Below are positions 4,411 to 55,829 of a stretch of DNA of 64,000 nucleotides, in pieces (positions within the stretch are counted from its first letter, which is position 1; every line of letters starts with the position of its first letter). Where the stretch lies: the NCBI RefSeq assembly GCF_963921235.1, contig NC_086097.1, positions 35,714,001 through 35,778,000 of the forward strand, given 5' to 3'. Made by a program: the position numbers and the translations under genes. The stretch comes from Mobula hypostoma. Taxonomy: Eukaryota. The notes beneath the pieces are model-generated. The model saw only the letters and a program-made list of their open reading frames with translations. It did no database searches and was not told the origin of the DNA.

Positions 4411-4659
4411 TGTCTATTTCACCAGCCCCACGTTCCAGATAGAACCCCAAATCCCGTTCCTTCCTGAGCTCCCACTCAGACTACCACCTCTCGGCATCCT
4501 GTGATGCCGCAGTGCTGTAGTCATCTGAAGAGCCTGAATGGTGCAAGGAGGCTCCCTCTGAATCAGCTCCAAAGACCAAGAGTTTGGCAAGGGACTCTGA
4601 AATACCCAACTTCCACCCAAAGAGATTAAGTGCTACAGCACATTAATGGCCATAAGACC

Positions 4660-5045
4660 ATAAAACTGTCAAACGTAGGAGCAAAATTAAGCCCAACAAC
4701 CCATAGAGTCTGCTCCGCCATTCCATTATGGTTAAATAATTATCCCTCTCAAACAGATTCTCCTGCCTTCTCCCCACAGCCTTTGATGTCCTTACTAAAC
4801 AAGTCCCTTTTAGCCGTTGCTTTCAATATACCCAAATGTCTTGGCCCCCACAGCTGTCTGCAGCAATGAATTCCACAGATTCATCACCCTCTGGCTAAAG
4901 AAATTACTCCTCATTTCCTTTCTAAAGGGATATCCTTCTATTTCAAGGCTGTGCCCTCTGCTCCTAGACTCCTCCACTATAGGAAACATCCATTCCATGT
5001 CCATTCAATATTTGATAGCCTCAAAAATACTTCCCCCTCCCCATG
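4660..5045 (-). mobile_element. CR1 LINE 3' end
   Basis: ESRSRGHSLEIEGYPFRKEMRSNFFSQRVMNLWNSL is the typical CR1 ORF2 C-terminus. Confidence 0.85.
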
Positions 5046-49889: not shown

Positions 49890-50310
49890 CATCCACTCTC
49901 AGGATGAAGGAGCAAAACCTTATATTCTATCTAGGTGGCCCCCAACCCATGAACATCAATTTCTCTTTCCGTTACTTTTCCCCCCACTCAACCTTCCCTA
50001 TTCTTCTATGCCCCACTCTGGCCTGTCCATTACCTCCCCTTGGTGCCCCTCTTCCTTTCTGTGATAGCCCGCTCTCCTCTACTACCAGTTTCCTTCATCT
50101 CCAACCCTTTACCTTTCTCACCAACCTGGCTTCATCTATCACCTTCTAGCTAGTCTTCCTTCCCCTACCCCAACCTTTTTTATTCTGGCATCTTCCTCCT
50201 TCCTTTCTAGTGCTAAAGGCGGGTCTTCCCTGAAACACGATGGTTTATTTATTTCTATTAATGCTGCCTGACCTGTTGAGTTCCTCCACTATTTTGTGTG
50301 TGCTGCTCTG
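49890..50310 (+). mobile_element. Penelope 3' fragment
   Basis: TLRMKEQNLIFYLG..., pyrimidine-rich 3' region and tail. Confidence 0.7.
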
Positions 50311-51064
50311 GCATCAAGTCAATTGACTTTACAAGTGTTCAAAATATAAGATACTGAGAAGAACAATTTATGGATGTCATCAGACAGTGATGGCAGATTC
50401 ACAGAGAAACAAATCATGCTTTTTCTGGAGACTACCTGAAAGTGGGACAAGGAATTTGCATGCTGGCTTTCAAAGCCAAAATATTTTGTAATAACCAACA
50501 AAATGAACGAGCTCATTATAACACTGTTTGCACTGATAGGCATTGATACGTTTTGTAACTGCACAACATTAAGCTAATTGGAAAGAAAACACGGAGAGTC
50601 CAGAATATGAGTCAAACTTCTTATTATGTGGTGGTGTGACCTTACATAAACTTGTAATGAAGTACTTAAACAAATAATGCTTCATCAAGCAAAATATTTA
50701 CAATACTATTGAAGTATTAAATACACATTCCTCCCTGCTCAGCTATAAACTCCAACTCAATATAGAATGTACGGCAACATATATAGATAAATGCATATAT
50801 ACAGTGTATACTATATAATACACTACTATTTAGACATCCACAGAATAGTAAATTTTAAATTTGCCCATCCAGGCCCAAAGATTTAATGGCTGTGGAGGAT
50901 TTCTTACTTTCGTGGGGTAATTATCTTCTCTGACAAAGGAGGGCACTCTGCTTTGCAGGTGAGACTTTTGGCTGTGGTAAGTATCACAAGTTCTGGGGCC
51001 TCCTCTGTAGTGGTTGCAGGAGTGACTCAGACAGCAGGTAGTTGTTCTGACTGCTCCAGACATC

Positions 51065-52345
51065 TTTCTTTTCCTTTTTTCTCTGGATCTACTATGATCC
51101 TTATTTCTCTTGCAATCCTTATCAGTCTCATTCCCACTCTTTTCTTTCTCACATTCCTTCTCTTTGATGCCTTTCACTTCTTCACTCTTATTATTTCTAT
51201 CAGTTGTCTCCTTTTCAACTTCTTGCTTTTTCTCACCTTTTTTTTTCTTCTGGTTGCTTGCGTGTATCCCTGACTTTGCTAATTTCTCAAGAAATTAGGT
51301 CTCGTTCATCCTCTACCATTTCCATAGTAATTATGTCATTTTCCTTTCTTCTTCTTCCTAGGATGTGCGTCTTGAACTTGGGAAGGTGTATTTATGTGGT
51401 CTCCTTCAGCTTTTTGAGTTCTTCCTTGTTGCCATTTTCCGAGTGGGTGATATGTTTTTTTTGTGCGAGGCAGGGGTTGAGGATTGGGGTCTGACGTTCT
51501 TGGCGTTTTTACTCGTGGGCGATCTGTTACTTTTTTGCATGCAAGAGAGGGGGTTGGGGTTTGATGTTATTGTTGCTGCTGTTTTGTGAGGGAGGATGCT
51601 GGGGGTTAGGGATTTGATGTTCTAGCTACCATTTTCTGGGTGGGTGAACTGTTAGTTTTTGTGTGAGGGAGACATTAGAGGGTTTGGGGTCTGCGAGTTT
51701 TGTTTCTTTTTTGTGTGGGGAGGGGTCGATGTCTTTTGTTTTAACAGCTTCCATGGTTTTTCTGTATTTCATGGCTACCTGGAGAAGACGAGTTGTATTC
51801 TGCGTACATACTTTGATAATAAAATTAACTTTTGAATCTTTAGATCACTGGGGTATTCTCTTATTACTCCTTCTACTGCTTCCTTTATGATCTGATCTCT
51901 CCTCTTTGTTTCCTCATCCACAACATCATCTGATGAATCCGCTGATTTTGCTTCTCCAGTGGCTCATCTCTTTTTGCCTTCCATTCATCCAGCTGTCCTT
52001 GGATCTTTGCATCTAATTTTACAAGTAGCTTTTCATCTGCCACGTGAAGTTCACACAATAGTCTTAACGCGCACAGAGTGGACTCTGGTTCTTTATGTTC
52101 CTGAAAGCTGAATGATTGAACTTTCCCAAAGCTCCTTGAACTCTTTTCCTGTTTAAAACCAAGCACATTTCACAAGTAACTGCCTGGTTAACCTATCATT
52201 AGCTTCCTCAGCTATGTTGCCAAGAAAAACTATTACAGTCGGACCACTGCTTTCATCACTTTCATGAGTCCTCTGAGCAGCATGGTCCTTCCTTCCATAA
52301 TCGAGTATGCTTTCCAACCAGACGAAATAAGTTGGCACCAATACC
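51065..52345 (-). pseudogene. RBM25: Intronless, frameshifted RBM25 fragment (RRM through the RE/RD-rich region)
   Basis: VLVPT..VGKH..RKDH..GPTVIVFLGNIAEEANDRLTRQLLVKC; KEPESTLCALRLL..KLLVKLDAK..QLDEWKAK; DEETKRRDQIIKEAVEGVIREY; HPRKKKK; RDLIS*EISKVRDT; RNKDHSRSREK, collinear with vertebrate RBM25 as I recall it. Confidence 0.9.
51395..51838 (+). mobile_element. Retroposon-like insertion inside the RBM25 fragment
   Basis: TTTA duplicated at 51391-51394 and 51839-51842; removing it restores the reading SDLNTPSQ; tail shared with 5961-6765. Confidence 0.75.
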
Positions 52346-53596
52346 TGTTTGCACTCTGCTAGGCAGCAGTTCATGGTGTACAGCATGGAGACAGTGATAG
52401 TATCATCCAAAACCTTTCTTAGTTCACTTTCAGTTGATTCTATAGCAGGTAATGGAATGCAAATGGTGGATGGATCTCCAACCAAGTTGTAGTTATCTCA
52501 GCCAATCATGACCCCACAATCCTGGCCCTCCTGTTTTTACCACATACAAGTACAATGTGGCTTGTTGGTTGTTGTGCTTCACACTTACGAATGGCATTCC
52601 CACAGGAGTTAGCTTTTCTCTAGCTCTTAGTTATACTTCTGCAGGATTGTGAAGTGACTGAAACAGTCAAACTAGCACTGATTTCCATTTTAATTAATTT
52701 GTTATTCACTTCTAATGTAAGCCATACTGCCTGCCTGTTGTTAGTTTTCACACTGTATATCTCAAGACTACTCAGTCCTGTGTCACTCTAGTTATTACCA
52801 GATTTTATCAACAAAATGCATTAGTGCTCGGTTTGAGATTGCAGCTTCACTTTTTATCTTTACCTCTTCCCTGTGCAGTCCATTTTTTTGTCTGCCCGAC
52901 CTACTCTTTGTATGTTTCCTACTTTGTTGCATTTTCTTCAAGTTTCACATTTAAATTTGCTTTGTTCTCATGTAAGGGAGCCCCAGCCACATGGTAACAT
53001 TTTTTCAGCCAGGCATGTTTCTGTTTAAACGTTGCAATTTTGTTCATGCTAACTTTCATTCCTGACTGCAACTCAATTGCATCTGTCTGCTGTTTCTATT
53101 GATAGAGCTATCTCAACTGCTTTTAAATGTGACTTGTGCTTCAGTTAGGAGCCGTTTTTCAAAGCTTTTTTGCAATATTTCACAAACTTAATGATCAGTA
53201 CATCATTAAGCTCATTACCACACTGACAGTACTCAGACAACTTATTCCACTCAGCCACATATGCTGAAATGGACTCCTTCATTTTGATTCCCTTTATGAA
53301 ACCTAAAGTGTTTTACATTCAATAATTTTGGTTCCAAATATCCTTGCATTACTTTCACAATCTCAGCAAAGCTCATTTCGGCTGGTTTGGTTGGAGTAGC
53401 TAAACTTCTAAGCAAGCTGTATGCTTTACCATCCAATGCACTCAGCCATATTGGCAAGTGCTTTTCATTGACTACTTCATTTCCTTCAAAATATGGCTCC
53501 ATCCATTCAGTATACAAAATTCAGTGAACTCTTGTGTAATCAAAGGCATCAATATTTCTGATGTAGCCAACCATTTCTACTTATTTTAATGATTAA

Positions 53597-54289
53597 TGTA
53601 AGGGAGTTTCGACTTTTATGTTACTGCGGAGGCCAATTAAAATGGCATCTGTTATGTTAACCTGGGGAATGTGGCTTTGTTGTGTTAAATGCTGAGAAAG
53701 TTTGCACTAGCAGCTTGTTTTTCTTTTAGAGTATGATAAGAGGGTGCTATTAACCAATTGGGATAGTTGTTACGGTTTTGGTTTATTTGAAGATACTGTA
53801 TGCGTGGGGTTTTGGGGCAGAAGGCGGGAGAGCGAGACAGAGGATGGACGAGGTGCTGTGAGTCCGCTAACGGGGGTCGGACCCCGAGCGGGGCGTTCAG
53901 CGAGGAGACGGAGACGGACTCGTGTGGAGCGTCTGGTCGACCACCGTTGTTGGTCCCAGACGGCCGGTCGAGGTGGTCTGAGGGGTCGCAGGGTGAAGAA
54001 GAAGGTCCTTGAGCTCCAACGGTTTTTGTGCACAAAGAGATTGAACTTTGATAAGTGTGGCGCCTTTTATTTTCCTTTTATATTTTATTCTCTTTTAATT
54101 ATATAGTTCCAGTAATATCTATAAACTGTATATCATTTAATTGCATCTGATGTATTGTCTGTTATTTGGGCAGGGTGGGGTACCTCACACAACATCCACA
54201 CAAACGAATTACCCAGTTTGCCGGGGCCGAGGCTGTCTCCCTAGACGACAGCGAGCCGAGCGACCCTGAGGGTGGCCGGGGGGACTACA
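53597..54289 (+). mobile_element. Solo LTR in the leader of the RBM25-carrying Gypsy
   Basis: TGTA...TACA ends; TTAA TSD at 53593-53596 and 54290-54293; CCAAT box. Confidence 0.85.
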
Positions 54290-55829
54290 TTAATATCACC
54301 GATACTCACTGTTTATGAATCCTGAATTCTTCCATTTTCTGCCTTTTTAAAACTCAGTCATCATTCTTTTTATGAAAATGCGTTGCTCCAAAGAAAAAAA
54401 AAGTGCTGCATTTTTTTTTTTAAATCTCTACCTTTTTGTGCTGCACTTCAACGGGTGGGTAGTCGCCTTGGGTTTAATTAAAACTTCGTTGTTGCCACTG
54501 TTAAGTTTTGTGGTTTCAGAATACTAAACTAATTGAAAGGAAAGCATGGAGAGTCCACAATACAAGTCTAACTTCATGTTTTCATTTAAGTGAGGCATGC
54601 ACGTATCACAAGGTGGTGTGATGGTGTATGCCATTTATGTACTTTTACATATAACCCATAAAGTATTCAAACAAACAAGAATGCCTAATCAAACAATAAA
54701 TTTACAAATATTACTCAATTATTACTGAAATATGAAATACACAACAATGGGATTATTCAACAAAGCAGGGATTTAATATTTTGTATTAAAGACAAAGCGC
54801 TTTGAGCTTTTTCAGGTGTTCTTGCCCTGTGATGAGCTGGGAAATGCAGATCCTCCAGACACTGAGGTACAAGTGTAAACAAACTTTGCTAATGTGTTAA
54901 GAAGATTAAGCTGCTGATGTGTAATTGCAACATGACCTCAGAGGATTTGTACTGACTGTGAAATGACGGATATTTCCTGGTGCTTGCGTTGCTTCTGTAA
55001 CCTGAGGATAAGAACCAAGTTAATCTTCGTAAAAAGAAATCCACCTGCATTATATATTAGCTATTGTAGGTAAATGAGAAGATCAACTTAAAATCAGTTC
55101 ATTTAACTATAGAGCACATGTCAAAAGTATAATAGATGTCACTTCATTTGAGGAAAATCCTATTTTCATTGAAAATAAACTATGTCTTAGCTTTACTCAG
55201 TCATAGCAAAAAGAAACAAGATGCTCAGCAGGTTAGACAGCACCTGAGGAAAGAGAAACAGATAACTAAGCAGGTTGAAAATTATTTGTCAGAATTTGGA
55301 AAAAATGATAGAAGTTCGGTTCAGAATTGACAGGCAAGGTTCAAGCCCAACTCTGGAATTTATGTAAAGATCACCACTTCCTCAAAACTCAGTAGCATTT
55401 TCCTGCTGTCATAACAAACACTTATCCTTCAGTCATTCAAGTAAACAACAGGCAGAAGCAAGCTAGATGATCGTCACTCAGCTGTTTCCAGTTAAACTCA
55501 GACTGATCTGCTGCTAATATGGGACTTGTTGAGAGCAGAGCCTCATCATTCTGGGATCCTGTGCAATTACACTAAGTAATCTGTCTCATCTCCTTTCAGT
55601 ACTAAATAGTCTAACCCTCATTCTGGACTCCTTAGCCAAATTAATATCCTCACCTCCACCCTTTTAAGTTCTTTAAGAATTCTATACATTTCGATAAGAT
55701 CATCTCTCCTTCTTCTAAAGTAAAATAACAGATTTCTAGCCAACTCTGTCTCTCCTCATATGAAAACTAAAACCACCCTGGTGATTCAAAATCAGAATCA
55801 AGTCCATTGTCTCTGACATTTGTCATGAA

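Follow-up and report, generated by a model that had tools for sequence, protein, structure and literature searches.

In acute transforming retroviruses, replication genes are replaced by spliced exons of a host gene, the acquired sequence is fused to Gag, and the virus depends on a helper. In mouse, ETn and MusD form a pair of long terminal repeat (LTR) retrotransposons, one non-autonomous and the other autonomous. Tan et al. (2016, Genome Res, PMC5131818) describe LTR-mediated retroposition for flies, mosquito, zebrafish, chicken and mammals. Earlier cases of capture to which their article refers are the Ty chimeras of yeast, maize Bs1, animal chimeric retrocopies and, through Swain and Coffin (1992), oncogene capture (all cited in PMC5131818). 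Here we analyse a 64,000-nt stretch of the Mobula hypostoma genome (GCF_963921235.1, contig NC_086097.1, positions 35,714,001 to 35,778,000; hereafter the window), in which a decayed Ty3/Gypsy element contains intron-free coding sequence of the host gene RBM25. We consider it very likely that this element is a dead and ancient copy of a non-autonomous family, which acquired spliced RBM25 sequence through two template switches and was then amplified and shortened.

Results

RBM25 sequence inside a Gypsy element

Coordinates are positions in the 64,000-nt window, and the element is read on the minus strand, from 54746 to 50544. In this direction, an LTR, a primer-binding site (PBS)-like motif, gag, protease, RBM25 coding sequence (CDS), the end of the Gypsy pol gene, a polypurine tract (PPT) and a second LTR follow one another, in the very order that an initial annotation, made from the sequence alone, had given. 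The 5' LTR (54499-54746, 248 bp) aligns with a 3' LTR that carries deletions (50544-50727, 184 bp). The alignments of other copies begin at 54746 ± 3, and at the opposite side a contig from another organism bridges the end of the 3' LTR into unique flank. The LTRs start with TGT(TGT)GTATTT and end with ..ACAAAAC.TA.CA. The TGG-led PBS-like motif (54484-54497) lies 1 nt past the LTR end, and the 13-nt PPT (50728-50740) abuts the 3' LTR; similar motifs, and purine tracts at the equivalent place, occur in copies L005, L011 and L019. Gypsy LTR features (TG..CA-type ends, PBS-like motif and PPT) are thus seen in the window element and in three other copies.

The gag region (52800-53574) retains a start codon at 53574 and remnants of CCHC knuckles near 52990-52890, and was recognized by tblastn with the Gypsy-type proteins P0242 and P0259. 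It is followed by the protease and a linker to the start of the reverse transcriptase (RT) domain (52403-52799), which match P0242 residues 290-395. Over the stretch 53574-52451, the two proteins gave E values of 1e-32 and 1e-40, respectively, and the alignments contain stops and frameshifts. The D-T-G protease site is lost in the window element and kept in copy L012; CCHC is present in copy L020. No domain was found by Pfam in the open reading frames (ORFs) of the window itself. A 114-aa ORF (52153-52497) runs without a stop from the linker AIESTESELRKVLDD into RBM25, which bears out an uninterrupted linker-to-RBM25 frame noted initially.

Homology to RBM25 is seen directly in the window by tblastn. 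The captured piece covers 52395-51839 plus 51394-~51064, is intron-free and amounts to ~888 nt. The initial annotation had described RBM25 CDS from the RNA recognition motif (RRM) to the RE/RD tract over about 835 nt; the piece is longer and starts before the RRM. Its first part (51839-52395), which includes the RRM, opens with the last 3 nt of one exon and a whole exon of 48 nt, and goes on with exons B, C and D and most of exon E, as supported by blastn to the native exons, by AG/GT exon borders and by a divergence of 16% from the spliced native CDS. Its second part (51076-51394) resumes with the end of exon E, continues through exon F and a shortened RE/RD exon G, and stops ~20 nt into exon H, as supported by blastn to the native exons, by our reading of native exons G and H and by tblastn with gar RBM25 (P0032). 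The element then continues with the end of the Gypsy pol ORF, which encodes sequence beyond the integrase core, and with a short 3' untranslated stretch (50799-51063).

The captured piece is a spliced copy of the native gene

A search with the C-terminal part of gar RBM25, which includes PWI, placed the native RBM25 gene at ~99.79-99.84 Mb of contig C1, on the minus strand. Across the captured region its introns measure 1.3-6 kb and have canonical AG/GT borders. In the window copy, blocks that correspond to the 48-nt exon, to exons B to F, to the RE/RD exon G and to the beginning of exon H (~20-29 nt) are joined precisely with the introns removed, making up nine native exons' worth of mRNA. 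The exon map thereby confirms that the host piece is spliced and derives from several exons. When other copies were aligned to a 615-nt spliced CDS, the alignments were free of gaps at the exon joins, with 85-89% identity for the RRM-seeded copies of the S and M forms defined below, and 74-87% for the L form. RBM25 proteins from many fish and amphibian species give matches to the well-preserved copy L003 (E about 1e-57, 75-77% identity). Pfam detects RRM_1 only in better-preserved copies such as L003 (E=8.4e-7).

The window copy is not a functional RBM25 paralogue: it is devoid of the PWI part, it contains stops and frameshifts, and the true RBM25 with its PWI exons lies elsewhere.

Two side observations concern the native locus. 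The 48-nt cassette exon VSMLYTMNRCPTEGKQ (L037, G000:C1:99832586-99832633) is absent from gar and bichir RBM25 proteins. A Heptranchias perlo model and a transcript-like contig both have it, after ..MIPVPMGLMAPATT, and it may be an exon of cartilaginous fishes only. In addition, an LTR of the family described here (L041, G000:C1:99876650-99876890; 72% identity to the window 5' LTR) lies antisense ~36 kb upstream of native RBM25. Given thousands of copies, its position is probably due to chance.

The element belongs to a large dispersed family

Copy numbers are given as first-look candidate counts, which are nominally lower bounds; 40 matches were scored per search. A 516-nt query across the linker-RBM25 junction returned 2720 candidates in the 3.48-Gb genome. 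All 40 scored matches span approximately the whole 516 nt, at 78-81% identity, and are distributed over many contigs. A protease-linker query returned 2434 candidates. In alignments of 29 copies with the window element, homology was confined to the interval from the start of the 5' LTR (54746 ± 3) to the end of the 3' LTR. Because the alignments stop at the LTR termini, the copies are separate insertions and not duplicated chromosome segments. Hence, as initially proposed, the element is a member of a mobile family whose dispersed copies have the junctions in common and are each bounded by their own LTRs. In every copy, the Gypsy parts to the left and right of RBM25 form one element; their origin from two unrelated insertions had been named at the outset as a possible objection.

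Comparison of 57 fetched copies, 29 seeded with the RRM and 28 with exon F, revealed three forms. The L form has the whole capture, and the window copy is of this type. In the M form, a truncated exon E is joined to the start of exon G, without the end of E, exon F and part of G. In the S form, the start of exon G is joined to the end of the exon-H piece, and almost all of G and H is missing. The RRM-seeded sample (n=29) contained one L copy, six M copies and 22 copies that are S or other, S being the commonest form. All 28 exon-F-seeded copies are of the L form, and the exon-F query gave 214 candidates. The RRM is kept in all three forms, and the RE/RD tract is shed. The order L to M to S is suggested because exons F and G would not easily be regained.

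RBM25 sequence replaces RT, RNase H and the integrase core

Relatives of the element show what has been lost from it. A library of 1.84 billion proteins contains 7689 relatives of the L020 gag ORF, among them full Gypsy polyproteins. In P0259 and P0355, Pfam domains follow the order gag, protease, RVT_1, RT_RNaseH, Integrase_H2C2 and rve. A probe over the end of the protease and the start of RT found many full-span loci in the genome, five of which coincide with best DNA matches of the window protease-linker. The window element and one of these five, the autonomous-type copy L072, match at 76% identity over L072 sense positions 1212-2031 and 4581-4866, the first match reaching window position 52398 and the second corresponding to the pol end. 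The intervening 2550 bp of L072 align to the RVT_1, RNase H, zinc-binding and rve domains of P0259. Since these 2.55 kb of RT, RNase H and integrase are absent between the flanking matches, the RBM25 piece replaced pol sequence rather than interrupting it, and it stands where the initial annotation expected RT, RNase H and the integrase core. The domain order protease-RT-RNase H-integrase is thus seen in P0259, P0355 and L072, and not in the non-autonomous window copy. The right Gypsy part corresponds to the final ~215 nt of the pol ORF and ends in ..YPTRVRNPPQRLNL (..YPT.VRNPPQ.LNL), as do P0242, P0259 and the L072 pol ORF. Parent-type copies are 83-86% identical to L072 and, from this identity, about as old as the RBM25-bearing family.

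A word-indexed search with the protease ORF yielded no relatives of greater length. When a 281-aa protease-RBM25 ORF was used as query, only RBM25 proteins were retrieved, with at most 75% query coverage (67% for the best match), and there was no annotated chimera of 154-492 aa. Other database proteins deserve mention in their own right. P0242, the closest database relative of the family gag (57% identity), is a hypothetical protein of the characiform teleost Metynnis hypsauchen and resembles an internally deleted Gypsy, with gag, protease and the start of RT followed by the integrase C-terminus. Its presence in this species indicates that the Gypsy lineage is widespread in fishes. Moreover, in gene models P0334 and P0349, an equivalent Gypsy gag is followed by a frog interferon-inducible GTPase and a goby CARD-LRR protein, respectively. 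These models may represent further captures or annotation fusions.

Microhomology at both junctions

The 5' junction is covered by 47 of the 57 fetched copies, and all 47 read ..GATGATGCCACAACT followed by GTCTCCATG. At this place, nine parent-type copies read ..GATGATGCCACAGCAGTGTTC, with scattered mutations. The native mRNA (..CCTGCCACAACT|GTC) and the parent copies (..GATGCCACAGCAGTG) have the 7-mer TGCCACA in common, which in the window copy occupies 52396-52402 in mutated form. It is intact in 5/9 of the sampled parent copies, and GCCACA in 6/9. The preceding native exon ends in ..ACTCCTGCCACAACT|gtaagt (also ..GCCACAACT|gtaagt), and the ACT of the family corresponds to its last three bases. 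ACT is thus RBM25 sequence of the upstream exon, which places the 5' switch within the shared TGCCACA, 3-10 nt inside the preceding exon.

Homology between the family and the native gene had appeared to start exactly at the acceptor of the 48-nt exon, and this acceptor was taken as the junction until the upstream native exon was found. Such a start, together with a GT directly past the junction in eight of nine parent copies, would fit a transduction of the oncogene type, in which read-through from an upstream Gypsy is spliced from a cryptic donor to the RBM25 acceptor and only the 3' junction results from a switch. However, the bases ACT before the exon differ from those of the parent (mostly GCA) and equal the end of the preceding native exon. 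The RBM25 piece therefore crosses the upstream exon-exon join, with the switch in TGCCACA inside the upstream exon. Moreover, the putative splice donor is weak, matching the consensus only at GT and +3. Splicing into RBM25 is consequently very improbable as the origin of the 5' junction.

The 3' junction is common to the L-form copies, in which the first ~29 nt of exon H are followed by GTGTCCAGAGC, the whole reading ..GAGAAAAGGAGAAGAAAGGTGTCCAGAGC. Native exon H reads ..GAGAAAAGGAGAAGAAAAGGGATAGG here (run ..GGAGAAGAAAAGG) and seven parent-type copies read ..GTTAGAGAAGAAAGGTGTCCAGAGC (run ..AGAGAAGAAAGGTG). The shared run, GAGAAGAAA, is 9 nt long and is intact in four of the seven sampled parent copies; in the window it lies, followed by GG, at 51064-51075. 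In 200,000 random pairings of the L072 interior with the native mRNA, a run of at least 7 nt had a probability of P=0.0006 and a run of at least 9 nt of P=0.00009. Two microsimilarity-guided template switches, to which these junctions point, are the signature of LTR-mediated retroposition. The microhomology at both ends is in line with the original proposal of host-gene transduction by template switching.

An intron-free piece is also what would be expected if a processed RBM25 pseudogene made by a LINE (long interspersed nuclear element) had landed in a Gypsy copy and the composite had later been duplicated. In that case, a single-copy RBM25 piece with its own target-site duplication (TSD) or poly(A) tail would be anticipated, as the initial annotation had pointed out. 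Neither poly(A) nor a direct duplication flanks the piece, which is multi-copy, and exon H passes straight into pol sequence. In addition, the piece replaces 2.55 kb of the element instead of interrupting it, it starts and ends inside exons at microhomologies, and the copies on many contigs terminate at LTR ends. We regard a LINE-made insertion as exceedingly improbable.

Reading frame and decay

The codon phase of GCC ACA is identical in the parent and in the native mRNA, which puts the protease-linker and RBM25 in the same frame. In 25 of 46 copies, at least 20 codons to either side of the junction can be read in this fusion frame without a stop, as compared to 1/46 and 2/46 for the other frames, and the longest ORF across the junction reaches 281 aa (copy L004). 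These counts bear out the linker-to-RBM25 frame of the suggested Gag-protease-RBM25 chimera. Given the matching phase at the 5' switch, the founder would have encoded Gag-protease fused to the RRM and RE/RD tract of RBM25. The phases at the 3' junction are one base apart, leaving the pol tail out of frame. No family-wide compensating 1-nt insertion was found in the pol tail: 15 of 32 copies have the parent tail length and 9/32 have one additional nucleotide.

The LTR pair of the window copy differs at 47 of 184 aligned positions (p=0.255). Along with the stops and frameshifts, this agrees with the earlier view that the copy is dead. Mean p-distances are 0.154 within S, 0.188 within L and 0.174 between S and L; distances to the native gene are 0.119 for S, 0.136 for L and 0.16 for the window copy, the last measured against the CDS. 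From these values, L copies are older on average, and the forms arose in quick succession because the net S-L divergence is about zero.

Selection on the RBM25 cargo

A useful cargo would be an alternative account of the success of the family: the Gag-protease-RRM fusion or its RNA would have out-replicated the parent, or the host would have kept a copy as a gene. In favour of this are the in-frame fusion, the great abundance of the family, and the presence of the RRM in L, M and S alike against the loss of the RE/RD tract. On the other hand, an in-frame join has a chance of 1 in 3, and non-autonomous LTR elements require only cis signals. Furthermore, none of the 57 copies is intact, and true-frame dN/dS between copies (0.72) equals that of the wrong-frame controls (0.58 and 0.69), a pattern that we read as neutral decay after insertion. 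Divergence of a master lineage, on which a useful cargo could be tested, is not measurable. From copy to native gene, dN/dS is 0.34, versus 0.82 and 0.89 in the wrong frames, because of constraint on the native RBM25 gene. We find it quite improbable that a useful cargo drove the family. The RBM25 cargo is most likely a passenger, and we have no evidence that it benefits the element. It is likewise improbable, if slightly less so, that the RBM25 module favoured the chimeric RNA or particle over the autonomous parent, for example through RNA binding, packaging or nuclear-speckle targeting, or that a burst of thousands of nearly identical RBM25 sequences exposed native RBM25, an essential splicing-factor gene, to small-RNA silencing directed at transposons. 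If true, such small-RNA exposure of RBM25 would be a natural case in which a transposon and a host gene come into conflict over sequence that both carry.

Several points weigh against a captured, trans-mobilised chimera as the origin of this family. Copy number rests on first-look candidates, verified only for the 40 scored matches per search. The identity of parental and derivative LTRs is an assumption. Some of the sampled parent copies, and the window copy as well, have mutations in the microhomology motifs. As no copy among the 57 is intact, the Gag-protease-RBM25 fusion protein is a predicted product. The dN/dS between copies gives no sign of constraint in the true frame over the wrong ones, and the near-zero net divergence between S and L leaves a test of cargo selection in the active phase without power; the sequence data are compatible with either its presence or its absence in that phase. 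No TSD, which in Ty3/Gypsy elements measures 4-6 bp, is readable at the window copy (5' flank ..CCCAT, 3' flank ATGCC..) nor in copies L005, L011 and L019; a decay of ~12% per site makes its loss likely, and insertion by integrase is suggested by the LTR termini only. Finally, the PBS-like site could not be matched to a primer tRNA.

The insertion in other organisms

Small shares of the window stretch are indexed in sequencing runs of other coded organisms; no RNA run is listed as containing it. In runs of organisms B and C, 18,564 and 34,199 contigs, respectively, were placed on the element at 80% likeness. One contig (X6 record 25; window 50265-50746, ~92% identity) bridges the 3' LTR end into low-depth flank, and two others bridge the 3' junction (X5 record 17, 50935-51197, 94%; X6 record 27, 50950-51299, 93%). 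With identities of about 92-95%, these X5 and X6 pieces are far nearer to the window copy than family members are. The window insertion is thus matched in two other organisms and predates the split of these organisms. Contig joints that skip the two secondary insertions described below could derive from other copies and give no dating of either insertion. Two runs of the source organism, of which the RNA origin is only a guess, contain contigs at least 80% like the element and allow no conclusion on expression.

Secondary insertions and flank

Two dispersed repeats, both on the minus strand, were later inserted into the window element. An old repeat of 444 bp (51395-51838) lies in the RBM25 part, and other copies join 51839 to 51394. 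This insertion had been recognized initially; a second and young one, of 693 bp (53596-54288) in the leader, had been missed, and here other copies run from 54289 straight to 53595. The 444-bp insert is a full-length member of its repeat family (4028 first-look candidates, 72-79% identity). This ~440-bp family has internal ~100-bp repeats, and a fragment of it lies in a native RBM25 intron (G000:C1:99827102-99827183). The 693-bp insert has 4754 first-look candidates and 39 other full-length matches at 94-95% identity. Its ends, TTAATGTA.. and ..TACATTAA, suggest a small DNA transposon inserted at TTAA. In the left flank, window positions 50200-50360 are a very high-copy repeat, with a summed contig depth of 10^4-10^5 in all four runs compared.

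Discussion

Our preferred reading, capture of spliced RBM25 by template switching, can be set out as a series of steps. A reverse transcriptase would have been copying Gypsy genomic RNA within a virus-like particle when, in the 3' part of pol, it switched to a co-packaged spliced RBM25 mRNA at the 9-nt microhomology GAGAAGAAA. After copying nine exons' worth of this mRNA, it would have switched back to Gypsy RNA directly after the protease, at the 7-nt TGCCACA. The product would keep both LTRs, the PBS, leader, gag, protease, pol tail and PPT, and would lose RT, RNase H and integrase. Because all cis signals survived, the chimera could have been mobilised in trans, that is, transcribed, packaged and copied with the enzymes of autonomous relatives, and amplified to apparently thousands of copies. 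During this spread, the purine-rich RBM25 sequence would have been shed stepwise, from L to M to S.

This family provides a fully resolved vertebrate example of an LTR retrotransposon picking up host exons. It indicates that a chimera of this kind need not stay a one-off retrocopy and can come to rank among the more abundant LTR-type families of its genome. The L, M and S series would record the trimming of a non-autonomous element during its spread, and an insertion common to other organisms would be a dated marker for phylogeny. For genome annotation, hundreds to thousands of decayed RBM25-like stretches will mislead gene prediction ("RBM25-like" models), orthology calls and read mapping. 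We found no report in the literature of RBM25 capture by such an element; Repbase-type libraries lay outside this search, and the family may be named there.

Among known systems, acute transforming retroviruses resemble the RBM25 family in that spliced exons stand in place of replication genes, are fused to Gag and create a need for a helper. In contrast, their 5' route by read-through and splicing is not encountered here, and the RBM25 capture is germ-line and ancient, not somatic and oncogenic. With ETn and MusD, the family has in common a high-copy non-autonomous derivative with the LTRs of its parent, replaced coding sequence and mobilisation in trans, the parental LTRs and the mobilisation being probable features here. 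It differs from them in that the source of the replacing sequence can be named exactly and in that gag and protease have been kept.

Captures described in the literature offer closer parallels, compared here from the portions of these papers that concern them. In the chimeras of Tan et al. (2016), an internal intron-free retrocopy likewise replaces part of the element ORF while both LTRs are kept, microsimilarity is present at both fusion points (median 6 bp, versus 7 and 9 here), the mRNA is partly copied, and further rounds of retroposition are possible (PMC5131818). Unlike the thousands of first-look candidates of the RBM25 family, the secondary retroposition reported there concerns single loci or few copies (PMC5131818). 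Compared with those cases, the RBM25 family also has an in-frame fusion to Gag-protease, is old, and is common to at least three organisms; the nearest named protein, from Heptranchias perlo, points to a cartilaginous fish as host. In maize Bs1, as presented in the same article, the interior of an LTR retrotransposon is also replaced by host exon fragments and the copies share their switch points; however, it is a plant element that combines three genes and has one to five copies (PMC5131818). Crocodilian endogenous retroviruses (ERVs) with KIT-ligand or nectin3 similarly took up spliced host mRNA and were then retrotransposed, in one case at the cost of a viral gene (Chong et al. 2014, PMC4299795). 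In contrast, these are ERV4-type retroviruses with whole host ORFs reportedly under purifying selection and, for nectin3, six insertions (PMC4299795). The RBM25 family is a Gypsy with a gene fragment on which no selection was detected, and it has a far higher copy number.

Overall, the mechanism appears ordinary and this kind of capture is already known, while the outcome is unusually successful for a vertebrate. The RBM25 family stands out from these systems because secondary retroposition has reached such a scale, because Gag-protease and the RRM are fused in frame, and because donor, parent and both switch points can all be read in one genome.

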